A DNA stretch of 64,000 nt from an uncultured Chloroflexia bacterium (GTDB taxonomy: Bacteria > Chloroflexota > Limnocylindria > QHBO01), in the NCBI GenBank assembly GCA_963790255.1, contig CAWBOA010000014.1:21047-85046 (forward strand), given 5' to 3'. The position numbers and the translations under genes are program-made. The first letter of the stretch is position 1, and the number at the start of each line of letters is the position of its first letter. Below the pieces are notes generated by a model. The model was not told the DNA's origin, did no database searches, and saw only the letters and a list, made by a program, of their open reading frames with translations. Of this stretch, positions 3,319 to 57,166 are shown in pieces.

Positions 3319-6300
3319 ATGACCGCCGTCTGCTCGACCTGCGGGGCTGAAAACCCGCCCGCGGCGCGATTCTGCGGCGCCTGCGGCGCGCGGCTCGCGA
3401 TGGCCTGCCCGCACTGCCAGGCGCCCGTCACCGGAACGACTCGCTTCTGCAACGCCTGCGGAGGCACGTTGCCGGCCGCCGATCCGAGCGGAATGTCGAC
3501 CGGCGAAGCCGATCCCGCGCACGGCCAGGTCGCGGAGCGACGCCGGGTATCCGTCCTCTTCGTCGACCTCGAGAATTTCACGAGCCTGGCCGAGTCGCTT
3601 GACCCGGAGGAGGTTCGCAGCGTCCAGGCTCGCTACTTCGAGGCGGCGCGATCGATCGTCGCCAGTCACGGCGGCACGATCGAGAAATTCATCGGCGACG
3701 CCGTCATGGCCGTGTGGGGCGCACCGATCGCCCACGAGGACGACGCCGAGCGCGCGGTGCGGGCCGCGGGAGCGATCGTGGACGCCGTGGGACGCCTCGG
3801 GGGCGCCGCATCGGGCGGGGCCCTCGCCGCGCGTGCCGCCGTCACCACCGGCGAGGCGGCCGTCACGCTGGGAGCGAGCGGGCAGGGCATGGTCGCCGGC
3901 GAGCTCGTCTCGGTCGCTGCTCGCCTCCAGTCGCGCGCGCCGGCGGGCGGAACCCTCGTCGACGGCGCGACGCGCAAGCTGGCCCGCTCCGCCGCCACGT
4001 ACACCGCCACCCGACCGCTCACGCTGAAGGGGCGGCGCGCGAAGCTGACGGCCTATCGGGCCAACCCCATCGTGGGCCCACAAACCGGGGCGGAGCGCGG
4101 CGCCCACAGCGGAGCCTTCATCGGTCGAGAGCGGGACCTGCGCGAGCTGATCGAGCTGTACCGAGGGGTAGTGCGCGACGGGCTTGGGCGCCTCGTGTCC
4201 GTCACTGGCATCGCCGGGATCGGCAAGAGCCGCCTGGCGTGGGAGTTCGGTGAGTGGGTCGAGGCCCTGCCCGAGGTCGTCGCGTGGCACGTCGGTCGCG
4301 CTCCGGCGTATGGCGAAGGGATCACCTTCGCACCCGTCGCGGAGATGGTTCGGCGACGGATCAGGGCCGCCGACGATGCCGGCCCGACGATCGCCCGCCG
4401 CCAGCTCGCCGGCGCGCTCGATGAGCTCGTTCGGGATGACGCCGAGCGGCGCTGGATGGAGCCGCGCGTCGCGGTCCTGCTCGGCTCGGATGATGAGCAC
4501 CCGTTCGACCGGGACGAGCTGTTCGCTGCGTGGCGCCGCTTCTTCGAGCGCGTCGCCGACCGGTCGCCGGTCGTTCTCGTCTTCGAGGACCTCCAGTGGG
4601 CCGACCCCGCGCTCCTCGACTTCGTCGAGCACCTCGCCGCGTGGACGCGGGACCATCCCATCCTCGTGCTGGCGCTCGCCCGCCCGGAGCTGCTCGACCT
4701 CCGTCCGACGTGGGCCGCGGGGCTCGGCCGATTGACGACGCTGCACCTCGAGCGGCTCTCCGATGCCTCGATGCGCAAGCTCCTCCTGGATCGGCTCCCG
4801 GCGCTGGCTGAGACGACGGTCAGCGCGATCCTCGAGCGGGCCGGTGGCGTCCCGCTGTACGCGGTCGAGGTCGCCCGCATCCTGAGCGAGGACGGCGTCG
4901 GTGGCCGTCCTCCGGTTGGCGGAGACCGTCGTGCGAGGTCCAGGGCCGCGCCATGGCGCGCGAGCGCGGGAATCGACGTCCCTGACTCGCTCCATGGGCT
5001 GATCTCCGCGCGGATCGATGCCCTGCCGCTGGCCGAGCGACGGCTGCTCCTCTCGGCGGCCGTCCTGGGACGGCGCTTCCGTCCGGGAGCGCTCGCGGCC
5101 GTGGCGGGCGGTGAGATGGCCTCCGTCCGCGAGCTGGCCGACGAGCTCGTGCGCCGCGAGCTGCTCACCATCGACGAGGAGCTGGTGTCTCCCGGGCACG
5201 GCCAGCTCGTCTTCGTCCAGGACCTCGTTCGCGAGGTGGCGTATCGCACGCTCGCCCGCAGCGAACGGCGCGCGCTGCACCTCGCCGCGGCGCGCTTTCT
5301 CGAGGGGCGCGAGGAGGATGACGTGGCGGAGTCACTCGCCACGCACCTCCTGGAGGCACATCGCATCGCGCCCGAGCATCCTGACGCCATGCGGATCGCG
5401 CGTCGGGCCGTAGCGGCACTGCGACGCGCCGGGCATGACGCACTTCGCCTTCACGTCCCCGATCGGGCACTCGGCCATTTCGCCGAGGCGCTCAGGCTGG
5501 TCGACTCGACGGCTCAACGGGCGCTGGTGCTCGACGAGGCCGCCACGGCAGCCCGCGCTGCTGCCCGCCTCGACGTCGCCGAGGGGCACGTTCGCGAGCT
5601 CGTCGCGCTCCACGAAGCAAGCAACAGCGGAGTAGAAGCGGCGCGTGCACGGGCGCAGCTGGCCAGCGTGCTGCTCATGGAGCAGCGGAACGAGTCGGCG
5701 CTCGTCGAGCTCGAGTCGGCCGTCACCGCGCTCGGCGACCTCGGCGCGGACGCGGCCGGCGTCGAGGTGGCGGCTCAGCTGGCGCGCGCCACGCTGCTCG
5801 TCGGCGACGCGCGCTCCGGGCTGGAGTGGGCGGAGCGAGCGATCAAGGCCGCCGATCGGCTCGGGCTGGACGCCGTGCTGACGGACGTGCTGGTCACGCG
5901 GGGGACGGCGCGGTTCCGGCTCGGCGACGAGGAAGCCGGGATGGCCGACCTGCGACGGGCGATCAGCGAGGCCGAGACCGCCGGCTACCTGACGACGGAG
6001 CTGCGCGCCCGGAACAACCTCGCCTGGCTGGTCGTCGCGGACGACCCGCGCCTCACGCTCGAAACGGCCCGCGAGGGATTCGAGCTCGCCACCTCCATGG
6101 GCGTCGGCGAGATCGCGGGCCAGCTCGCCGAGGTCGCCTGCAGCGTTGCCCTCGACACCGGCGACTGGAGGTGGGCCATGTCGACCATCGGCCACATCGT
6201 GGACGGCCCGATCCCGAACGCCAATCGCATCAACCTGCTGGCCATCGCCGCTACCATCGGCGCCCTCCAGGGCGACCCGGAGCCGGTGCTGGCGTTCGAA

Positions 6301-47142: not shown

Positions 47143-47829
47143 ATGGAGATCGCTCCGGCCGTCCACCAGGTCCGGATGCTCGGCGCCGATGCCTTCCTCA
47201 TCGCCGAGGAGCGGCTCACCCTCATCGATGCCGGCATGGTCGGCACGCGCCTCACGCTCGAGCGCTACCTGCGCCGCATCGGCCGGAGCATGGACGAGCT
47301 GGACCGGATCATCCTCACGCACGGCCATCCGGACCACATCGGCGGCCTGCGCGAGCTCGTGGGCGATCGGAGCGACGTCACCGTGCTCATCCATCCGGAT
47401 GACCTCGCCGGCCTCCGGCTTCCGCTGCGCGAGGCCCTCGCGCGAACGGAGGATCCGGCCGTACGCCGCGGACGGCTGATCCAGTACCTGACTCGGGCGC
47501 CCGCCGACGCGACGCCGATCCTGGATGGGCAGCTCATCCCGGTCCTCGGCGGCCTCCGCGTGGTGCATACCCCCGGCCACACCCCGGGCAGCGTGTGCCT
47601 CTACGCCGAGCGCATGCGCCTCCTCTTCACCGGAGACGTGCTTCAGGTGCTCCGCGGTCGGCTGACGTATGCAAGCGCGTTCTTCAGCCACGACCACGCC
47701 GGCGCGCGCTCGTCGGTCGAGCGGCTGGCGGAGCTGGACGTGGACACGATCGCCCTCTCCCACTATCCCCCGTGGACGGTCGACGCGAACGGCGCGCTCC
47801 GCTCCCTCGCCACGGCCGCGGCCTCGTGA
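47143..47829 (+). CDS. MBL-fold metallo-hydrolase
   Basis: THGHPDH, TPGHTPG, FTGD. Confidence 0.9.
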   Translation: MEIAPAVHQVRMLGADAFLIAEERLTLIDAGMVGTRLTLERYLRRIGRSMDELDRIILTHGHPDHIGGLRELVGDRSDVTVLIHPDDLAGLRLPLREALARTEDPAVRRGRLIQYLTRAPADATPILDGQLIPVLGGLRVVHTPGHTPGSVCLYAERMRLLFTGDVLQVLRGRLTYASAFFSHDHAGARSSVERLAELDVDTIALSHYPPWTVDANGALRSLATAAAS

Positions 47830-50351
47830 CCACCGGCGACGCCGCCGCACCGAGCGTTGACACCGTTCCGGCCCTCCTGACGGAGGCGGCACGGCGGCAC
47901 GATCGCCGCCCGGCGCTCCTCATCAAGCCGGCCTTCCGCACCCGTCGCTGGCGATACCGGGATCTCGCCGCCCTCGCGCCCCGCGTCGCACGCGTCATCG
48001 CCGATGCCGGGATCGAGCCCGGTGATCGGGTCATCATCTGGGCGGTCAACCGGCCGGAGTGGGGGATCGCCTTCCTCGGTGCGATCCATGCCGGGGCGGT
48101 CCTCGTCCCGCTCGACTTCCGCACGCTGACCGACTTCGCGAGCCGCGTCGCGGAGCGCACCGAGGCCAAGCTCGTCATCGCATCGGCCCAGACCGCGGCC
48201 GCGGCATCGGCCCTTGGCCTGCCGATGGTGCTCATCGAGCAGCTCCCCGACCGGGCGCGCGCAAGCGAGCCCCTCCCGACGCCGCCGATCGCGCCGGACG
48301 ACCTGCTCGAGATCGTATTCACCTCCGGCACCACCGGCGACCCGAAGGGCGCGATGCTCACCCATCGCAACCTGGTCAGCAACGCGCGGAGCCTGGTGCA
48401 GGTGTTCCACTTCCAGCGCAACGAGCGACTGCTGTCGGTCCTGCCGCTGAGCCACCTCTTCGAGCAGACCGTCGGCTTCCTGACGCCGCTCCTGGCCGGC
48501 GCAAGCGTGGTGTATCCCATCAGCCGCCAGCCGTCGGTGCTGGTACGGACCTTCCGCGAGTTCCGCGCGACGATGCTGCTGATCGTTCCGCAGGGCCTGA
48601 AGCTGCTGGACAACGCCATCGAGCGTCATGTCGACGCCACCGGCCGGCGCGCGACCTTCGAGAAGCTGCACCGCTGGGCGCGCCGCCTGCCCCGGCCCCT
48701 GCGGCGCATCCTCTTCCGCCCTGTTCTCGGCCAGTTCGGGGGTCGGCTCAGCACGATCGCGGTGGGCGGCGCGGCCATGGACGTCGAGCTCGCCAACCGC
48801 TGGACCGAGATGGGCCTCGAGGTGCTCCAGGGCTACGGGGCAACCGAGATGGCGCCCGTCCTCACCTTCACGCGGCCCGAACGCAACCGATTCGGGACGG
48901 TGGGCGAGGCGATCCCAGGGGTCGAGGTCCGGGTTGCCGATGACGGCGAGGTCATCGCGCGGGGCCCGAACCGCTTCGCCGGCTACTGGCGCGATCCGGA
49001 GTCCACGGCCGCCGCGATCGATGCCGAGGGCTGGTACCACACCGGCGACCTCGGGGAGCTCTCGGCCGACGGCCAGCTGACGCTGCGCGGTCGGAAGAAG
49101 GACATGCTCGTCCTCGCCGACGGCACGAACGTGTACCCGGAGGACATCGAGGCTGCCCTCGTCCGCGACGGTCGCGTCCGCGATGCGGCGGTCGTCGGGG
49201 TCGGCGACCCGGGCGACCTGCGCGTGCATGCGGTGCTGCTGATGGACAACCCGGCCGAGGCGCCCTCCGTCGTGCGCGACGCAAACGCCGCGCTGGCCGG
49301 CAGTCAGCAGATCCGCGGCCACTCGGTGTGGCCCGAGGACGACTTCCCGCGCACGCACACCCTGAAGGTCAAGAAGCGACTCGTCCTCGCGGCGCTCGAT
49401 GGTGCGGCACCCGCCGCGGCAGAAGCGGCGAAGCCCACGCCGTCGGCAGCGGCCGCGGCGAGCGGCGGGATCGATGGCCTGCGGGCGGTCGTGGCGGCGA
49501 CGGCCAGCCTGCCGCTCGATCAGGTGACTCCGGAGGCTCGCCTCTCCTCCGACCTCGGCCTTGACTCACTGGCGCGCGTCGAGCTGCTCGGCGTGATCGA
49601 GGAGGAGCTCGGTGCCTTCGTCGACGACGCGATCCTCGACCCCGAGGCCACCATCGCAGAGCTCCACGCATTGGTCGAGGCGGCGCGCGACGCGAAGCGC
49701 GACACCGGCATCTACGGCTGGCCGCTCAACCCCTTGGTGCGCGCGGTCGGGCTCGGCCTCCAGGAGCTGTTGATGGTGCCGATCGTCGGGCTCGCCTATC
49801 GCGTCCGGGTGCGCGGTGAGAACCACCTCAAGGGCCTCGAGGGACCGGTCATCTTCGTGCCCAACCATCACCTCCACTCCGACAACATGATCATCCTCAC
49901 CCACCTGCCGTTCGTGTGGCGCTGGCGCCTCTCGGTCGCCGCCGCGGCGGATGACATCTTCGGCAACCCCGTCCGCGCGCTCGGCGCATCGGTCCTCGGC
50001 AACGCCTTCCCGCTGGCCCGGGAGGGGGCGATCCGTCGCTCGCTCGAGCTGCTCGGCGCTCGCCTGGACCGCAACTTCAGCGTCCTCATCTATCCCGAGG
50101 GCGAGCTGACCGTGGGTGGTCCGCTGAAGCCGTTCAAGGCCGGCGCTGGCCTCATCGCGGTGGAGGGAGCCACTCCCGTCGTGCCGATGAAGGTGAAGAT
50201 CCACCGCCTGTCGTGGATCGATCAACGCGGCAAGGGGACCTCCCCGCGCGGCGACGTGGAGGTCGTCTTCGGGGAGCCGATCTACTTCGCCGCCGGAACC
50301 GAGGCCGGCGCCGCAACCGCTCGGCTCCAGGCCGCCGTCTCCGCCCTGTAG
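47826..50351 (+). CDS. Acyl-AMP ligase / acyl carrier domain / PlsC-type acyltransferase fusion
   Basis: FTSGTTGDPKG, GYGATE, TGD; LGLDSL (Ppant Ser); NHHLHSD, YPEG. Confidence 0.9.
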   Translation: MTTGDAAAPSVDTVPALLTEAARRHDRRPALLIKPAFRTRRWRYRDLAALAPRVARVIADAGIEPGDRVIIWAVNRPEWGIAFLGAIHAGAVLVPLDFRTLTDFASRVAERTEAKLVIASAQTAAAASALGLPMVLIEQLPDRARASEPLPTPPIAPDDLLEIVFTSGTTGDPKGAMLTHRNLVSNARSLVQVFHFQRNERLLSVLPLSHLFEQTVGFLTPLLAGASVVYPISRQPSVLVRTFREFRATMLLIVPQGLKLLDNAIERHVDATGRRATFEKLHRWARRLPRPLRRILFRPVLGQFGGRLSTIAVGGAAMDVELANRWTEMGLEVLQGYGATEMAPVLTFTRPERNRFGTVGEAIPGVEVRVADDGEVIARGPNRFAGYWRDPESTAAAIDAEGWYHTGDLGELSADGQLTLRGRKKDMLVLADGTNVYPEDIEAALVRDGRVRDAAVVGVGDPGDLRVHAVLLMDNPAEAPSVVRDANAALAGSQQIRGHSVWPEDDFPRTHTLKVKKRLVLAALDGAAPAAAEAAKPTPSAAAAASGGIDGLRAVVAATASLPLDQVTPEARLSSDLGLDSLARVELLGVIEEELGAFVDDAILDPEATIAELHALVEAARDAKRDTGIYGWPLNPLVRAVGLGLQELLMVPIVGLAYRVRVRGENHLKGLEGPVIFVPNHHLHSDNMIILTHLPFVWRWRLSVAAAADDIFGNPVRALGASVLGNAFPLAREGAIRRSLELLGARLDRNFSVLIYPEGELTVGGPLKPFKAGAGLIAVEGATPVVPMKVKIHRLSWIDQRGKGTSPRGDVEVVFGEPIYFAAGTEAGAATARLQAAVSAL

Positions 50352-50359
50352 GGCGAGCC

Positions 50360-51761
50360 TCAGCGGGCCGCGAGGAGGGCAAGCGCGACGGCGAACGTCG
50401 CCTCGGCGAAGAGGGCCACGCGCGCGACGTCCACGTTGTCGATGTCATCGCAGGCGAGGTGGTAGCAGGCGTCCGGCGGCTCACCACCGGAGCCACCCGC
50501 ACCCGGCTGCGCGGCGCCTCCCGTCTCGCTCGCCCCGGCGAACAGCCCGCCGGTCGGGATCCCCGCCTCGACGAACCCGAAGTGGTCCGATGAGCCGCCG
50601 AGATCGGTTGGCTGGAACGGCTCACCGCGCTGGCCGAACCAGGCGCCATACGCATCGGTGATGGCGGCGGAGCCCTCGGCCGCCCCGGCCTCGTCGTACA
50701 CGAGGGTGGCGCCGTTGAGCGAGCCGGCCATGTCGAGGTTGAGATAGGCGACTGGCTCGTCGTCGAGGTGATCCACGTAGGCGCGCGAGCCGATCGTTCC
50801 CAGCTCCTCGCCTCCCCACAGGCCGATCCGGACCGCGCCGCCGTCGGGAACGCCAGTCTCGGCAAGGCCGCGGGCGATCTCGAGCAAGGCGGCCACGCCG
50901 CTGCCGTTGTCGTTGATTCCGGGCCCCTCGAAGACCGAATCGAGGTGGCCGCCGAGCATCACGACCGACGGCCCATCGCCGAGCTGCGCGATGACGTTGC
51001 GGAGCGTGGCCGGCTCCCGTTCGGTCTCGACGACCAGGTGTGCCGCGGCGTCGCCCTCAGCTTCGATCGCCGCGATCGCCTCGTCCGTGACGCTCACCAC
51101 CGGGATCTCGATGCCGCCGGGGTCGATCAGGGTGGGCCGGAAGATCTCGCCGGGCCCGCGGTCGGGGTATCCGACGACCAGTGCGGCCGCGCCGGCACCA
51201 GCGGCGTTGATGGCCTGCTGCCGCCGGAAGCAGCCACCCTGGACGGTGAATGCGATCGCGCCCTCCGGCACGTCGGCGAAGTCCTCGGCGGCGCAGCCAC
51301 TGCCCTGAAGCTGGACGATGGGCGCGGTGATGTCACCGCTGGCCGAGTAGATCAGCGCGTGCAGCTCATCGGGCGCCTCGAATCGCGCGTCGCCGACCTC
51401 GAGCACCGCGCCGGGAAGCTCGCGGAAGCCGGTGAAGGACACCTCGGGCGTGCTCACGTCGAAGCCGAGCCCCTCGAGGACCCCGAACCGCGTAGTCCAC
51501 CGATGCCTCGTAGCCCGCGCTCCCGGCGAAGCGGACGCCATCGTGCTCGTCGGCGATCCCCTGCAGCGCGGCGAGGTGCTCGCGCAGCCGATCCTCGTCG
51601 GCGGAGAGCTGCGGGCCGTCGGACGGGAGCGGGATGACCGCGTCGCTCTCGCGCGGCAGGTCGCTGCCGTCCGGTGGGACCGTCGAGGGCGCCTGGGACC
51701 CGCACGCGGCCAGCAGGACGGCCAGCGCGACGGCGGAGATGCGCCGGTCCAGAGTCCTCAC
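50360..51761 (-). CDS. M28 aminopeptidase lipoprotein with PA domain, frameshifted near 51490
   Basis: Lipobox LAAC; GHLDSV, NDNGSG, GEELG, NLDM, SDH, YH. Confidence 0.9.
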
Positions 51762-51891
51762 GACAACTCATACCCCCGCCGGCGCGAGATGGTTCGCCGC
51801 GGGTCCCGCGGTAACACCCGCGGCGGCGCGGCCGTCGAGTGCCCATGCGAGCGCCGACATTACGAGCGCCCGCGCCATGAGGTCCCACCCG

Positions 51892-52584
51892 ATGCGTCGA
51901 CTCCTCCCCCTTCTCGCCGTCGTCGCTCTCGTCGGCGCGGTGCCGGCGACAGCGGTCGCAGCCGTCCCGGACTACCAGCGCGTCATCGTGTCGCGCCATG
52001 CCGATGCCGCCCTCGTCGCGATCGACGGCTGCGTCGTGACCGAGGTCTTCGTCTCGGCCATGGACGCGAAGTTCGGCGGACGACCCGGTCCGAACATCCG
52101 ACAGGGACTCACCGGCGTCGGCGTCCGCCAGAGCGATGCGTGCGCCGGCGCGGCTTCGATGGGCAGCATCGGCATCTTCGCCGCGGGTGGGGGCGGCGGT
52201 GCGCTCCTCTTCGACGGCCTGGGCCAGACGTTCGACCCGCTCGGCAGCAACGTGCACTTCGACCGCGCCTGGCTGAGCGTCGACGTGCCGATGGTCGACG
52301 AGGTCTCCGGCGACGAGGTCATCGTCACCCTCGACCTGGCGTGGAGCCTGGTCGGGGAGCTCGAGCGCGACACCGGCCACCTCCACGTCCGCGTCCCCGG
52401 CGAGGGGAACGTGAACAGCCACCAGAACACGCTCATGGGCGACGCGACGGTGAGCGGGACGGTCGTCATCGGCTCCGAGGTGCTCACCTTCGATTCCGTC
52501 GAGGGCGCCCACGTCCAGCAGGTGAAGTACGGCTGCCAGGTGGTCGCTCACCCATCAGCCGGTGAGCCCGACTTGAGCTGCTAG
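51892..52584 (+). CDS. Hypothetical secreted beta-rich protein
   Basis: Signal peptide MRRLLPLLAVVALVGAVPATAVA; four Cys. Confidence 0.7.
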   Translation: MRRLLPLLAVVALVGAVPATAVAAVPDYQRVIVSRHADAALVAIDGCVVTEVFVSAMDAKFGGRPGPNIRQGLTGVGVRQSDACAGAASMGSIGIFAAGGGGGALLFDGLGQTFDPLGSNVHFDRAWLSVDVPMVDEVSGDEVIVTLDLAWSLVGELERDTGHLHVRVPGEGNVNSHQNTLMGDATVSGTVVIGSEVLTFDSVEGAHVQQVKYGCQVVAHPSAGEPDLSC

Positions 52585-52611: not shown

Positions 52612-54237
52612 TCAGCTCCGCGAGAGCGCGCCTCGGTACAGGTCGAGCAGGCGCGTGCTGAGGCCGGGCCCGGCCGACACGAGGTCGCGGAACTCGTCCG
52701 CATCCAGCGCCATGAGCGTCCCGTCGGTCGCCGCCGTCACGGTGGCCGTACGGGGCGACTGGCGCAGGAGGCCAATCTCCCCGAAGACGTCTCCCGGGCC
52801 GAGGTCCCGAAGGTGGGTGGCGTCCGAACCCTGGGTCACCCGCGTCGTGCCCTCCGCGATGAGGTAGAAGCGGTCGGCCGCATCGCCCTCGGCAACGATC
52901 ACCTCGCCGCTGGCCATCGGCACCGGCGTGAGCTGCCGGGCGGCGGTCTCGAGACGGGCGATGGGCAGTCCCGCGAAGATCGGGTGATCGAGCAGCCGAG
53001 CCCGCGCCGCATCGAGCGGCTCGGGAGCGTCGCCGCCCCTTGACAGCAGCAGGGCGACGAGCACGCCGGCGACGGAAACGATCGCGCAGCCAATGAGGAC
53101 CTGCGGGACGCCGATCGAATCGGCCAGCAGCGGAATCACGAGCGATCCGAGGCTGTAGAGGATGGCCGAGCTGGTCTGGAGGACACCCATCGCTCGTCCG
53201 CGCAGAGCATCCGGAACGATCCGCTGGATGAGGGTGGTGTTCACGACGTCGAGGAGCAGGAGCCCGGCGACGGCGACGCCCATCGCCAGCATCGCCACCA
53301 GGATGTCGCCGGCGATCGCCAGCCAGACGAGCCCGATCCCGCCGACCAGCCCGCCGATCAGGAGTGGGACGCTCAGCCTCCTCGCGAGGAGCGCACCGCC
53401 GGCGATGCCCGCGATCACGCCTCCGACCCCGGTTGCGGCGTTGAGGTACCCGGTCCCGGCCTCGCCCGCATGGAGCACGTCGAGCGCGATGACGACGGTG
53501 AGCACGCCAATCCCGCCTCCCACGAGGCTCGTGGCCGAGTCGAGGACGAACGGTCCGGCCAGCGGGCCGGCCAGCTGACGCCAGCCCGGCTCCGCTGCCG
53601 GCACCTCGTCCGTAGCCTTGGGCTCCGGCGGCGCCTCGGCGGCAGTGGCCGTCACGGGAAGGCGCCAGAGCACCACGGCAATGATCCCGAACGACACCGC
53701 GTTGAGGAGGAAGGCCACCGCCAGGTTCCCGGTCGCGAGCAGGATCCCGGCGAGCGCGGGACCGATGATGAACGCGACGTTATCGAGGGTCGCCCAGGCG
53801 CTGTTCGCCGGGCCGAGGTCGCGCTCGTCGACCAGCATCGGCAACAGCGACGCGATGGCCGGCCCGAAGAAGGTCGAGAAGCAGGCCGCCAGGATCGAGA
53901 GCGCCACGATCACGATCGTCGGAGCCTCGACTACCACCGCCGCGGCCAGGGCGAGCATGATCACGCCGCGCGCGATATCGGTGACGAGCAGCACCTTCCG
54001 TCGGTCGTATCGGTCCGCGACGATCCCCGCGGGAACCGACAGCAGGACGTAGGGGAGGATGCGAGCAGCGCCGACGATCCCCAGCAGGACCGTCGAGTTG
54101 CTGTCGGCGTACACGACCACCAGCACGGCAACCAGGTAGAGCCAGTCGCCGATGCCGGAGACGAACTCGCCGATCAGGAGCCGCGCCAGCGCGGTGTTTC
54201 GTCGGAAGAGGTCGACGTACGTCGTGAACAGGCTCAC
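52612..54237 (-). CDS. MFS transporter fused to a C-terminal cyclic nucleotide-binding domain
   Basis: GIVADRYDRRK, PDALRGR, ~12 TM; FYLI..G...GDVFGEIGLL...PRTATV. Confidence 0.93.
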   Translation of the reverse strand: MSLFTTYVDLFRRNTALARLLIGEFVSGIGDWLYLVAVLVVVYADSNSTVLLGIVGAARILPYVLLSVPAGIVADRYDRRKVLLVTDIARGVIMLALAAAVVVEAPTIVIVALSILAACFSTFFGPAIASLLPMLVDERDLGPANSAWATLDNVAFIIGPALAGILLATGNLAVAFLLNAVSFGIIAVVLWRLPVTATAAEAPPEPKATDEVPAAEPGWRQLAGPLAGPFVLDSATSLVGGGIGVLTVVIALDVLHAGEAGTGYLNAATGVGGVIAGIAGGALLARRLSVPLLIGGLVGGIGLVWLAIAGDILVAMLAMGVAVAGLLLLDVVNTTLIQRIVPDALRGRAMGVLQTSSAILYSLGSLVIPLLADSIGVPQVLIGCAIVSVAGVLVALLLSRGGDAPEPLDAARARLLDHPIFAGLPIARLETAARQLTPVPMASGEVIVAEGDAADRFYLIAEGTTRVTQGSDATHLRDLGPGDVFGEIGLLRQSPRTATVTAATDGTLMALDADEFRDLVSAGPGLSTRLLDLYRGALSRS

Positions 54238-55082
54238 GTTGCCGTGCTCACCCGGTGCCGCCAGGGGTGGCGCCGGCCGGGATTGTCGGAGATGCTTGCC
54301 AGGACCGCCTTGACCTCGAACGGGGTGAGGCCCGGGTGCTTCGACAGGATGAGCGCGGCGAGCCCCGCGATATGCGGGGCGGCGAAGCTGTTACCGGTGG
54401 CGACGGTCGATCCCCCGTCCTTCCACGCGATCGGGACATCCACCCCCCAGGCGCCGAACTCGACCGGCGGCGCTGGGTTGTAGTAGATCCGCCACGGGTC
54501 CGGCTCAGGGTGCGCGGCGACCGAGAAGACGGACGAAAAGAGGGACGGGTAGCTCGGCGCCGGCACGTTGTTGGCGGCGCTCACCAGCGCGGTGGACTGG
54601 AAGTACGCGCGATCGGCCAGGTCGTGGAAGATCGGGTAGAGCGACTCGCTCTTGGACGAGAGGCTCAGGTTGCAGACCTGCAGGCCCTGCTCGATGGCCC
54701 ACTCCAGGCCGGCGGCGAAGGCGGTGCCCTTTCCGCGCAGGTCGGCACCGAGGACGCGGATTGAGACCAGCTCGACCTCCGGCGCCATCGACAGGATGAT
54801 CCCGCCGCACGCGGTCCCGTGGCCGAACATGTCGACTCCCTCGTCGGGCACGACGACCGGCCCGTCATCGCGCATCTCGACCGTGACGTTTTCGACCACG
54901 CGCCCGTTGAGACGCGGGTGGTCGTTCTCGAGGCCGGAGTCGATGATCCCGACTCGAACCCCGGCGCCCGTCGCGCCGCCCCAGGCCCACTCGCGCGTCA
55001 GGCCTCGCAGGCGGAGGCTGCGACGGAGCTCACGGCGTGGGTTGGCGAACGGCTCGGACCACGCCGGCAGCTCCGGCGTCAT
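54234..55082 (-). CDS. Minimal cytoplasmic S8 serine peptidase
   Basis: IIDSG (D), HGTAC (H), SAANN (oxyanion N), GNSFAAP (S); no signal peptide. Confidence 0.92.
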   Translation of the reverse strand: MTPELPAWSEPFANPRRELRRSLRLRGLTREWAWGGATGAGVRVGIIDSGLENDHPRLNGRVVENVTVEMRDDGPVVVPDEGVDMFGHGTACGGIILSMAPEVELVSIRVLGADLRGKGTAFAAGLEWAIEQGLQVCNLSLSSKSESLYPIFHDLADRAYFQSTALVSAANNVPAPSYPSLFSSVFSVAAHPEPDPWRIYYNPAPPVEFGAWGVDVPIAWKDGGSTVATGNSFAAPHIAGLAALILSKHPGLTPFEVKAVLASISDNPGRRHPWRHRVSTAT

Positions 55083-55858
55083 CGACGCAATGAGGAGCGC
55101 TGCGATCGTCCCGCGTGATCGGCCACGACCTCGAGCATGTCAACGACGAGCGCGAGCTCGCGATCGCTGAGACCCCGAAGGCGAGCGACCTGGTCGACCA
55201 GGCGCCAGAAGGGGGATTCGTCATCGGCATCGAGGCCGACGGTCGCCGCCGAGACGGCCGCGTCGATCTCTTCCTCGCTCGCCCCGGCGGCGAGCTCCCG
55301 CAGGACCGCGCCGATCAGACGCCCGGTGTCGCGCTGGACCTTTGCCGCGGCGATGGCGACGGTGGCCTGTCCGGCGAAGACGCCGAGCAGCTCCATGTCG
55401 CGGAGGGAGAAGGTCGCCGATGAGTGCTTGTCGAGGACCTGGAGGACGCCGACCACGTTGTCCTCGTCGAGGAGCGGCGCGGCCGCGATCGAGCGGGGAA
55501 CGTAGCCCGTCTGCTCAGCCGCGTCACGGTTGAAGCGTGGGTCGTTGCCGACGTCCGACAGCGCGAGCGCCTGGCCGGTCGAGTAGACGAAGCCGACGAT
55601 TCCCTGCGTCGGCGGCACGGAGAGACCGATGGCCCCGGCGCCCTTCTCGCCGGCGGCAACGCGGAACTCGAGCCGATCGGGATCCTGCTCGAACAGCGCG
55701 ATCGACGCCGCTTCGGCGTCGAACAGGCGCACGGTGGCGTCGACGATGCTCTGGAGGAGCCTCGTCTCGATGTCACCCTGGAGCCGTCTCCCGACGGCGG
55801 AACGCCGCGACGCCGCAACGAGTGCGGCGATCGCGGCATCCACTGGAGGGTCTGCCAC
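55079..55858 (-). CDS. Stand-alone GAF domain protein
   Basis: GIVGFV...DVGNDPRF...SIAAAPL...GVLQVLDK...FSLRDMELL (NKFDE-like). Confidence 0.9.
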   Translation of the reverse strand: MADPPVDAAIAALVAASRRSAVGRRLQGDIETRLLQSIVDATVRLFDAEAASIALFEQDPDRLEFRVAAGEKGAGAIGLSVPPTQGIVGFVYSTGQALALSDVGNDPRFNRDAAEQTGYVPRSIAAAPLLDEDNVVGVLQVLDKHSSATFSLRDMELLGVFAGQATVAIAAAKVQRDTGRLIGAVLRELAAGASEEEIDAAVSAATVGLDADDESPFWRLVDQVARLRGLSDRELALVVDMLEVVADHAGRSQRSSLRR

Positions 55859-55870
55859 CCTTGTGTGGCT

Positions 55871-56359
55871 TTACCGGCGTTCCAGACCGCCCAGATGGCC
55901 CTCGGTGTCGTCGTCATCGGCGATACCGCGAAGCTTGTTGGTGTGGCCCTCGGTGTCGTCGTCATCGGCGATACCGCGAAGCTTGTTGGTGTGGCCCTCG
56001 GTGTCGTCGTCATCGGCGATACCGCGAAGCTTGTTGATGTGGCCCTCGGTGTCGTCGTCATCGGCGATACCGCGAAGCTTGTTGATGTGGCCCTCGGTGT
56101 CGTCGTCATCGGCGATACCGCGAAGCTTGTTGATGTGGCCCTCGGTGTCGTCGTCATCGGCGATACCGCGAAGCTTGTTGATGTGGCCCTCGGTGTCGTC
56201 GTCAGACGCCCGCTGACCGATGGCGTGGCCCTCCACGTCCTGATCTCGATCGTCGCCCATTATGTGACCCTCCACTGAATCGTCATCATGTGCCTCCCCG
56301 CCGAGCGAACCCGGACGGGAGAAGCCCTCCATCGGCGGACGCCGCCGGTAGTCATCCAT
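55871..56359 (-). CDS. Acidic repeat protein, putative multi-core peptide precursor
   Basis: AGGAGG 8 nt before ATG; nine EGH motifs; stop 12 bp before the GAF gene. Confidence 0.8.
   Translation of the reverse strand: MDDYRRRPPMEGFSRPGSLGGEAHDDDSVEGHIMGDDRDQDVEGHAIGQRASDDDTEGHINKLRGIADDDDTEGHINKLRGIADDDDTEGHINKLRGIADDDDTEGHINKLRGIADDDDTEGHTNKLRGIADDDDTEGHTNKLRGIADDDDTEGHLGGLERR
55896..56204. repeat. 48-bp tandem repeat, ~6.4 copies
   Basis: Unit TGGCCCTCGGTGTCGTCGTCATCGGCGATACCGCGAAGCTTGTTG[G/A]TG starting at 55896, 55944, 55992, 56040, 56088, 56136, partial at 56184. Confidence 0.98.
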
Positions 56360-56429
56360 GCGTTTCGCCTCCTAGGCAGCGTACTCGCACTAAACGAATT
56401 CATCGTAGGAACCGGGCCCCGTCATCCTG

Positions 56430-56468
56430 AATCGTCGGGGCGACAGGTTCCATGTCTTCTAGGCGACA
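56430..56468 (-). promoter_or_regulatory. Tandem Crp-family-like sites upstream of the repeat gene
   Basis: Minus strand TGTCG-N6-AGACA-N7-TGTCG-N6-CGATT; TACGAT -10 at 56407-56402. Confidence 0.6.
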
Positions 56469-56470
56469 GC

Positions 56471-57166
56471 TCATCGGCTGCCATGTCGCTCGAGCTCGGC
56501 GAGGTCGTGGATGACGAGGGTCTCGCGCTCGATGCTGATGAGCCCATCGTCGACGAGCCCGCTGAGGAGCTTGTTCACGCTCTGGCGCGTTCCGCCGATC
56601 ATGGCGGCCAGGTCGGACTGCGTATAGGGCCAATCGAGCTCGACTCTTCCGGACGCCTGCGGGCTCGCGTTGCGGGCCACGCGAACGAGCCGCATCGAGA
56701 GCCGCCCCGCGAGATCGAGGAAGTGCAGCTCCTCGACGTGTCCGGTGAGCCGTCGCAGCTCCTCGGCCAGTGCGTGCAGGAGGGCGTGGACGAGGTGTGC
56801 GTCATCGGTCAGGAGCTGGAGGAACTGCTCGCGCGGCAGCGCCAGCGTCTCGGTGGGTTCAAGCGCGGTCGCCGTCGTCGAGCGCGGTGAGCTGTCGAGG
56901 AGGGCGAGCTCGCCAAAGAAGTCGCCGGGCTTCAGGCTGGCGATGATGGCCTCGTCTCCCTCGGTGGACGGAAGCACGATCTTCACTCCGCCGGCGGCGA
57001 CGACCTGGAGCGAGTCACCGATGTCGCCCTGGTGGAAGATCACCTCGTTCCGTCGGAAGCGGCGCCTCCGCATCTGCCCGGCGATCAGCCGCAACCCATC
57101 GTCCGCCACGTGGGCGAAGAGCGCACAGCGGCGCAGGCTTTCGATCGCCAGGGACTCGTCGAGCAC
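56471..57166 (-). CDS. Crp/Fnr-family transcription regulator
   Basis: GDFFGELALLDSSPRS cNMP cassette; TQSDLAAMIGGTRQSVNK HTH; GAGGG RBS before GTG 57166. Confidence 0.95.
   Translation of the reverse strand: MLDESLAIESLRRCALFAHVADDGLRLIAGQMRRRRFRRNEVIFHQGDIGDSLQVVAAGGVKIVLPSTEGDEAIIASLKPGDFFGELALLDSSPRSTTATALEPTETLALPREQFLQLLTDDAHLVHALLHALAEELRRLTGHVEELHFLDLAGRLSMRLVRVARNASPQASGRVELDWPYTQSDLAAMIGGTRQSVNKLLSGLVDDGLISIERETLVIHDLAELERHGSR

Follow-up and report, generated by a model that had tools for sequence, protein, structure and literature searches.

The 64,000-nucleotide stretch of an uncultured Chloroflexia genome analysed here (hereafter, the window) carries a minus-strand open reading frame (ORF), at positions 55871..56359, whose 162-residue product alternates an acidic motif ending in Glu-Gly-His with short basic segments. 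We think it probable, if far from assured, that this product is a pro-peptide cut at each motif by a subtilase encoded in the same gene module, and that its production, cutting and export are under cyclic-nucleotide control through a GAF-domain protein, a Crp-type regulator and a transporter of the major facilitator superfamily (MFS) with its own cyclic-nucleotide-binding (cNMP) domain. In this scheme, the ORF would yield a polyprotein-like pro-peptide consisting of a leader and then cassettes, each made of a basic variable segment of 5–9 amino acids (aa), three to five Asp or Glu residues and [Thr/Val]-Glu-Gly-His. The motif would be the recognition site for the co-transcribed, cytoplasmic S8 subtilase, with [T/V]-E-G-H filling subsites S4–S1, the cut falling after His (P1) and the acidic run lying on the P5–P8 side of the cut. 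The GAF protein would probably be a cyclic-nucleotide sensor partnering the protease, the fragments would exit via the MFS exporter, and the neighbouring Crp-type regulator would set transcription at a conserved TGTC-N8-GACA palindrome. Cleavage and its exact bond are predicted from sequence patterns, and the roles given to the GAF, Crp and MFS proteins are likewise putative; the released short cationic peptides, or acidic-tailed fragments, may be exported effectors such as signals.

The precursor begins with a conserved leader of 32 aa, continues with two non-repeat cassettes, an AIGQRAS cassette and six 16-aa cassettes that are nearly identical ([I/T]NKLRGIA-DDDDTEGH), and closes with a 7-aa tail. 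Its order is leader MDDYRRRPPMEGFSRPGSLGGEAH, DDDSVEGH, IMGDDRDQDVEGH, AIGQRASDDDTEGH, INKLRGIADDDDTEGH four times, TNKLRGIADDDDTEGH twice, and the tail LGGLERR. The repeated cassettes are encoded by a 48-bp tandem array (55896..56204, minus strand; 6.4 copies with 99% matches by Tandem Repeats Finder), and a Shine-Dalgarno sequence, AGGAGG (56368..56373, minus strand), can be read 8 nt upstream of the precursor ATG. The original prediction had counted nine EGH motifs and one EAH in this ORF and had listed the segments that follow them as IMGDDRDQ, AIGQRAS, INKLRGIA (four times), TNKLRGIA (twice) and LGGLERR. Counts and segments agree with the translation; the EAH was wrongly taken for a copy of the motif, as it belongs to the leader, where homologues have GGEA[W/F/Y/H] at this position.

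On the evidence of its translation, its homologues and its codon-level conservation, the precursor ORF is a real gene under protein-level selection. In the 2.26-Mb source genome assembly, a count over every stop-free frame of 60 aa or more gives 15 occurrences of the pattern D[TV]EGH, against 2.0 expected from composition, so that its enrichment is not due to chance; eight of these occurrences lie in the precursor ORF. Across 90 ORFs from 77 loci, D[TVA]EGH has 58 distinct 15-mer spellings, synonymous codons being used freely for Gly (GGC 148, GGT 77, GGG 13, GGA 11), Glu (GAG 199, GAA 50) and His (CAC 219, CAT 30), which upholds the earlier suggestion that the motif is selected at the level of protein. 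In codons 2–22 of the leader, the proportions of synonymous (pS) and nonsynonymous (pN) differences among 30 distinct sequences are 0.47 and 0.093, a ratio of 0.20, in which pN is lowered somewhat by the choice of sequences by protein pattern. Contigs from two soil RNA libraries span the leader of near relatives and include an in-frame 3-nt insertion, a weak hint given that DNA may be present in such libraries, and the shares of the region in soil sequencing runs are small (0.05–0.09) and uninformative on habitat or expression level. A promoter and terminator scan of the locus yielded nothing useful.

A word-indexed search returned 198 homologues of the precursor at E ≤ 0.01, any name given being 'hypothetical protein', and a family profile built from 39 members and searched against 1.84 billion representatives matched 386 representative clusters (50% identity) at E ≤ 0.001, of which 36 also pass E ≤ 1e-10 and 2 pass E ≤ 1e-30. 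The family is found in Chloroflexota and Actinomycetota, and a language-model atlas likewise places the precursor in unnamed clusters of these two phyla, labelled 'hypothetical protein' and with no Pfam family. Scans of Pfam-A, NCBIfam and PADLOC (E ≤ 0.01 or 0.001) gave no match to the precursor, with 0 families in each. All 120 listed homologues from the word-indexed search carry two to eight E[GA]H motifs, and 140 of the 147 proteins newly added by the profile search have at least one acid-[TVAIS]EGH motif. The original prediction had proposed a pattern search for small proteins with multiple D[VT]E[GA]H copies and a motif logo across homologues; the homology searches gave this large two-phylum family with a common architecture, and the logo revealed a conserved EGH motif separated by hypervariable spacer segments.

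Throughout the family, a D-D-D-D-[T/V]-E-G-H motif alternates with hypervariable basic segments of 5–9 aa and is followed at the C-terminus by a short tail of 4–7 aa, while the copy number ranges freely from 2 to 13. Among 908 distinct motif contexts, Asp occupies the four positions before Thr/Val at 0.47, 0.60, 0.69 and 0.84; then come Thr (0.54) or Val (0.42) and Glu-Gly-His. Conservation thus spans eight residues, and information is at most 1.2 bits immediately after the motif His. That conservation stops at this His is what would be expected for the non-primed side of a subtilase site.

The segments between motifs are constrained in length and charge. In type-A members (116 proteins), the variable segment is 5–9 aa long in 288 of 320 cases and the acidic run has 3–5 residues in 310 of 320; all 320 segments contain Lys or Arg, the last of which is followed by one to three small residues. 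Of 238 distinct segments, 217 have a net charge of +1 to +3; Cys accounts for 0.1% of residues, and Ser and Thr are not enriched. All precursors examined extend beyond the last motif, by a tail that is 4–6 aa long in 188 of 220 and ends in Lys or Arg in 114 of 220; in some subfamilies this tail equals the first residues of a cassette (RVLR, KQRK, SRSR, SYKAR, KVTAR). Sequences hypervariable between strains and constant within a protein recall, by analogy, pheromone-type peptides.

Departures from this plan occur within the family. The motif is replaced across whole genomes or proteins by D-V-S-G-H, D-T-Q-G-H or D-T-E-G-Q. Some members have DxEGH cassettes after a short leader and carry, at the C-terminus, a conserved domain, MMGNPLLNQQLARAREQDIQR...PHKK; the eight loci with precursors of this kind (L023, L029, L063, L069, L083, L085, L088 and L091) also have, after the S8 gene, a third small ORF with three DDVEGH sites that ends in YG.[LV]KSPSSRGE. 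Actinomycetota precursors have leaders of their own, and some of their cassettes are rich in His, as in L047 ([AG]HHHKNFADAEDDDTEGH, 8–12 repeats) and in the example GHHHKNF. Many assemblies shift in mid-array from the cassette frame to a '...TTPRAT...' frame (P0108, P0125 and P0050; L023, L071/L096, L085, L147 and L163); these shifts could be repeat assembly errors or genuine frameshift variants.

The gene module is ordered, on the minus strand, as Crp/Fnr-type regulator, precursor, GAF protein, S8 subtilase and MFS exporter with cNMP-binding domain, and the GAF/S8 and S8/MFS genes each overlap by 4 nt. The regulator (56471..57469; cNMP_binding and HTH_Crp_2 domains) is listed as an ORF of 332 aa, the true start of which is probably internal, since only about its last 230 aa are covered by the domains and by alignments to relatives. 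The GAF-domain protein (55079..55858; 259 aa) has its GAF core at residues 33–170, followed by a helical C-terminal part, and its stop codon overlaps the start of the S8 gene. The subtilase (54234..55082; 282 aa), which is the proposed processing protease, has catalytic residues D48, H88 and S232 and the oxyanion residue N172. The start of the proposed exporter gene (52612..54237), which encodes an EntS-like MFS_3 transporter with a C-terminal cyclic-nucleotide-binding domain, overlaps the S8 stop.

This module is conserved across two phyla. Among the best 80 of 136 relatives fetched with the precursor profile, GAF and S8 genes are present together in 67 loci, Crp in 66 and MFS in 55, and all four in 48; 8 of the 13 loci without S8 stop at a contig end just beyond the precursor. 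GAF and S8 genes lie on one strand in all of 114 loci and in the order GAF, then S8 in 106 of them, and a search of the same loci for GAF-S8 fusions found a single possible case (L032), apparently frameshifted. Of 24 same-genus genomes (including the unpublished G005), 21 have a high-scoring GAF orthologue, and of the 11 relatives' loci returned, 10 show a repeat ORF next to GAF. S8 orthologues (E ≤ 1e-84) are found in 45 of 401 sampled Chloroflexota genomes (including the unpublished G180). GAF adjoins S8 in nearly all the loci fetched by the S8 search, and every locus of the window's family has the repeat precursor, as do most loci of the sister family. The module also occurs in Actinomycetota, where the S8 is 51–60% identical; in the actinomycetotal locus L047 (8753–11531), two genes for TldD/PmbA-family metallopeptidases lie between the precursor and Crp.

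The proposed protease belongs to the Peptidase S8 (subtilase) superfamily, as judged from its match to Pfam PF00082 (9.2e-26) and the presence of the catalytic triad and the oxyanion Asn. The triad is invariant in 38 sequences. The protein aligns to the mature domain of subtilisin BPN' (E 5e-26), the 266-residue chain in this alignment presumably lacking residues 75–83; in the HMMER alignment, N172 corresponds to the oxyanion Asn155 of BPN' and V173 to residue 156, which we take to be one of the classic determinants of P1 preference in the S1 pocket. A Pfam scan gave no prodomain and the N-terminus is not hydrophobic, so that the enzyme is probably cytoplasmic. The mycosin and QhpE models are its best NCBIfam matches, at 108.9 bits for TIGR03921 (cut-off 278.75) and 105.2 bits for NF049966 (cut-off 165), and the PatA/PatG model TIGR03895 scores 15.9 bits (E 0.0041; cut-off 421.05); none of these cut-offs is reached. 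The neighbours are GAF, MFS and Crp rather than ESX genes, and no radical-SAM, quinohemoprotein, QhpD or QhpC genes were found in the stretch of the window scanned. A predicted complex of S8, GAF and precursor residues 1–80, modelled without controls, gave ipSAE scores of 0.01 and 0.00 and speaks neither for nor against binding.

Natural variants of the motif allow the pairing of enzyme and site to be compared. A scan for two D-T-E-G-Q motifs identified 26 loci, all in Chloroflexota or Actinomycetota metagenome-assembled genomes (MAGs), with the same architecture and Gln in place of His; a protein query with P0202 for EGQ-type loci found none. Whole proteins, such as P0202 and P0264, are EGQ throughout and have no motif His, and such proteins occur in at least 20 loci. 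Ten S8 sequences from EGQ loci (at least 180 aligned residues and at least 45% identity) were compared with 76 from loci found with the EGH profile or the S8 search, an EGH-type ORF being seen in all of the latter but L106; the mixed locus L156 was kept apart and the unrelated, 28%-identical S8 of L149 was left out. Three positions fully separate these first two sets: position 173 is Val in 75 of 76 EGH-linked and Met in 10 of 10 EGQ-linked enzymes, position 180 is Ser in all 76 and Ala in all 10, and position 190 is Ala in 75 of the 76 and Ser in all 10. The sole exception in the EGH set, L055, has Gln at 173 and a D-A-E-G-H motif. The mixed EGQ/EGH locus L156 has Met at 173, and L113, with one EGQ, has His. 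In five further EGQ-type Chloroflexota genomes, residue 173 is Met (2) or Tyr (3), with an N171S change and a one-residue insertion, and S180 and A190 are kept.

In a quick maximum-likelihood tree, the EGQ-type S8s fall into two clades, one in Actinomycetota (Shimodaira-Hasegawa-like approximate likelihood ratio test support 99) and one, comprising L159 and L113, within a Chloroflexota clade (96), which lie on opposite sides of a split supported at 100 on each side. The existence of two separate EGQ clades indicates that the switch from His to Gln and the loss of Val173 occurred at least twice. The motif and the S1-aligned residue of the subtilase thus co-vary in the aligned sequences. Taken together, the co-variation at 173 and the sharp edge of conservation after His lead us to predict that [T/V]-E-G-H lies in S4–S1 and that cleavage follows His or Gln. 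Where the motif Glu is changed to Ser or Gln, in some genera, only V66 of the subtilase differs in both cases, and by alignment this residue is outside the binding cleft.

The motif also appears in a second, unrelated protein linked to the same enzyme, a finding that fits a recognition site better than a structural repeat. In the source genome (G000) it is a single-pass membrane protein encoded outside the window, on contig C4 at 137453–138226 (plus strand; L144 5004–5777), without a Pfam match and with three DDTEGH sites in its N-terminal part. The last DDTEGH stands directly before AISIHFPS...FRKRLLVTG and a membrane helix, after which come three Thr/Gly-rich repeats, TTTGSAWTQDER. Homologues of this protein lie in the module in at least nine genomes of several genera, within the precursor/GAF/S8 locus (L042, L078, L096/L071, L098/L109, L104, L105/L110, L107, L112 and L115). 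On the strength of its motifs, it may be a second substrate of the subtilase. The original prediction had preferred a protease recognition site to a metal-binding or scaffold repeat, and the linkage of GAF and S8 in 67 of 80 loci, the sharp edge, the co-variation at 173 and this second motif-bearing protein all point in that same direction.

Cyclic nucleotides are the probable common theme of the remaining components. A 16-bp palindrome, TGTC-N8-GACA, lies at 56453..56468, just after the stop codon of the regulator gene, and is a candidate operator for the adjacent Crp/Fnr-type regulator. It is present in all 37 distinct upstream regions of type-A precursors, 26 of which contain the strict form TGTCG-N6-CGACA, and is centred 99–108 nt before the ATG, the chance expectation being 0.0008 per 140-mer. 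We take this palindrome to resemble Crp-family sites, and the Crp-type regulator would be the protein that binds it. The GAF protein matches Pfam GAF at 1e-19, and its best sequence and fold matches include CyaB2, PDE2/5/10 and cAMP-bound Lcd1; its core resembles cAMP/cGMP-binding GAF domains by sequence and predicted fold, which makes it a putative ligand-binding domain. The fold matches are limited to this core, and the C-terminal part is modelled at a low predicted local distance difference test (pLDDT) score of 54–73. The class III nucleotidyl cyclase domain is matched 38 times in the 2.26-Mb, 63%-complete source genome, with 37 matches over the cut-off, from which cyclic-nucleotide signalling appears to be heavily used in this organism. 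One of the 38 matches lies in the window (3538–4056) and 37 elsewhere in the genome, an unusually large repertoire.

Several observations weigh against a pro-peptide cut by the co-encoded subtilase, or against parts of that proposal. Five of the 80 precursor loci have no GAF or S8 gene nearby (L061, L062, L072, L084 and L086); two of these share a MAG with L087, which carries both. In distant Chloroflexota GAF+S8 loci, a pattern search found the repeat precursor in about 9 of 27 and none within 6 kb in about 18 of 27. The changes S180A and A190S are seen only in the Actinomycetota clade and in L159, leaving 173 as the only position altered in every EGQ lineage, and the co-variation rests on two, perhaps three, independent events. 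The position of the cut is derived from the boundary of conservation and from the BPN' alignment, with the residue numbering and S1-pocket roles of BPN' taken as given. Nothing in the window stands out as an enzyme that would make the C-terminal cut of each basic segment. Finally, tails resemble the cassettes of their own protein only modestly (mean prefix identity 0.36, against 0.19 for cassettes of other proteins; at least 75% in 28 of 220), so that the idea of a last core ending at the stop codon is not general.

Other explanations of the repeat protein have to be set against these. It could be a pseudo-substrate, decoy or regulator that titrates or times the subtilase or replaces its missing prodomain, the true substrate being a different protein that bears the motif, for instance the membrane protein with its three DDTEGH sites. 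We regard this as unlikely, though it is the alternative with most to recommend it: the S8 lacks a prodomain, a second motif-bearing protein stands in the module in several genera, co-variation of motif and S1 residue fits any direct contact of enzyme and motif, and the number of copies is free to range from 2 to 13. However, a dedicated exporter is linked in 55 of 80 loci, segments of constrained length, with a net charge between +1 and +3 and with Lys or Arg present in 320 of 320, exceed what a decoy needs, and the membrane protein is unlinked in the source genome. A little less likely again is an uncleaved, disordered Asp/Glu/His protein acting as a metal binder or polyampholyte scaffold, with the neighbouring protease serving turnover only. 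The nearly invariant His and acidic runs, the His-rich cassettes of some Actinomycetota (such as GHHHKNF) and the place of the exporter in an EntS-like siderophore-exporter family would suit such a role, but entire proteins with EGQ and no motif His in at least 20 loci, the exchange of the motif Glu for Ser or Gln in some genera, a protease that tracks the change from His to Gln, module regulators that would sense cyclic nucleotides rather than metals, and the fact that no examined protein terminates at the motif all argue against it. The idea of cleavage in front of Glu, giving fragments that start with an X-X-His copper-binding (ATCUN) motif, was ruled out by the all-EGQ proteins.

We find it improbable that the ORF encodes a true precursor of a RiPP (a peptide made by the ribosome and modified after translation), with cores modified or macrocyclised by the subtilase as a transpeptidase, as in PatG, or by unlinked enzymes. 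The multi-cassette layout, with conserved flanks and hypervariable cores, is of this kind, the S8 weakly matches the PatA/PatG model, and L047 has its TldD/PmbA pair; yet no modifying enzyme is conserved in the module, the cores are almost free of Cys (0.1%) and not enriched in Ser or Thr, and the last cassette lacks the follower that a PatG-type macrocyclase needs. A graspetide was also considered and ruled out, there being no ATP-grasp gene in the scanned neighbourhood. The chances that the array is simply a DNA tandem repeat, open in the precursor frame by accident and not translated, are negligible. Several frames are indeed open on both strands of the G+C-rich array, but this explanation is already contradicted by the sequence evidence, namely the Shine-Dalgarno site and ATG, the conservation of a non-repeat leader (pN/pS 0.20), the spelling of the motif by 58 synonymous 15-mers, the in-frame indel among relatives and the homologues in two phyla with unrelated DNA.

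The logic of the proposed pro-peptide system is, by analogy, that of cyanobactin PatE/PatA, alpha-factor/Kex2 and Phr-type peptides, with no homology and a different gene set. Cyanobactin PatE has several cassettes in which hypervariable short cores stand between conserved recognition sequences, and the S8 protease PatA cuts at the C-terminal edge of the upstream site. The module has in common with it a multi-cassette precursor with conserved flanks and an S8 protease; it differs in that Pfam and NCBIfam scans of the neighbours gave no heterocyclase, PatG macrocyclase or prenyltransferase, in an unrelated recognition motif, in a last cassette followed by only a 4–7-aa tail, and in having GAF, Crp and a cNMP-domain MFS instead. 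Yeast alpha-factor (MF-alpha-1) is made as tandem short peptides with acidic spacers, and the specificity of Kex2, an S8 kexin, lies entirely on the non-primed side. Tandem peptides and acidic spacers are features of the module as well, but the yeast system belongs to the eukaryotic secretory pathway, uses a dibasic rather than an acidic-plus-His site and has no sequence homology to it, and the protease of the module is predicted to be cytoplasmic, with export by MFS. The Phr and arbitrium (AimP) peptides of Bacillus and its phages are unmodified, strain-variable peptides of 5–6 residues cut by subtilisin-family proteases; their precursors are mostly single-copy, exported by Sec, cut outside the cell and accompanied by a cognate RRNPP receptor, none of which is seen in the module. 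QhpE is a small subtilisin-like protease that trims the ribosomal peptide QhpC; it and the mycosins are the nearest curated S8 models, yet the S8 falls below both cut-offs and the locus has no qhp or ESX genes.

Some neighbouring genes complete the picture of the locus. Downstream of MFS, on the minus strand, are an M28 aminopeptidase with a PA domain and a 365-aa ORF without a Pfam match (50360–51541 and 51454–52551); an M28 gene lies 4–5.5 kb from the precursor in 11 of 80 loci, all of them close relatives, and is therefore probably a mere neighbour. A 918-aa ORF (47595–50351, plus strand) with AMP-binding, phosphopantetheine-attachment and acyltransferase domains resembles acyl-ACP synthetase/lysophospholipid acyltransferase fusions, and a tRNA-Gly (CCC) gene lies just upstream of the module (57792–57867, plus strand). 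PADLOC gave only generic subtilase and cNMP-domain matches in the module and no defence-system assignment.

Known examples of peptide precursors with multiple copies that subtilases cut are those of cyanobactins, fungal pheromones and animal neuropeptides. A literature search, with relevance judged by title, returned only unrelated papers or general reviews and none describing the precursor family, and the system looks like an undescribed route to secreted peptides in soil bacteria. It is possible, although we hold it to be rather doubtful, that the module is a cyclic-nucleotide-gated peptide factory, in which a second messenger acting at three levels (Crp, the GAF partner and the cNMP domain of the exporter) triggers the synthesis, site-specific cutting and export of strain-specific cationic peptides of 5–9 residues. 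If so, it would represent a new and widespread class of bacterial signals, unmodified peptides made by Chloroflexota and Actinomycetota of the soil, and a subtilase that co-evolves with its own 8-residue cut site. The natural specificity switches, His with Val173 as against Gln with Met173 or Tyr173, make the recognition hypothesis directly testable, and a defined 8-residue motif together with a small, prodomain-less subtilase of apparently strict specificity is a possible tool. The family spans two phyla and is abundant in soil metagenomes, and its putative control layer, all of it built on cyclic nucleotides, is unusual. It offers a handle on peptide communication, or on another function of exported peptides, in Limnocylindria, an uncultured and poorly understood soil lineage.

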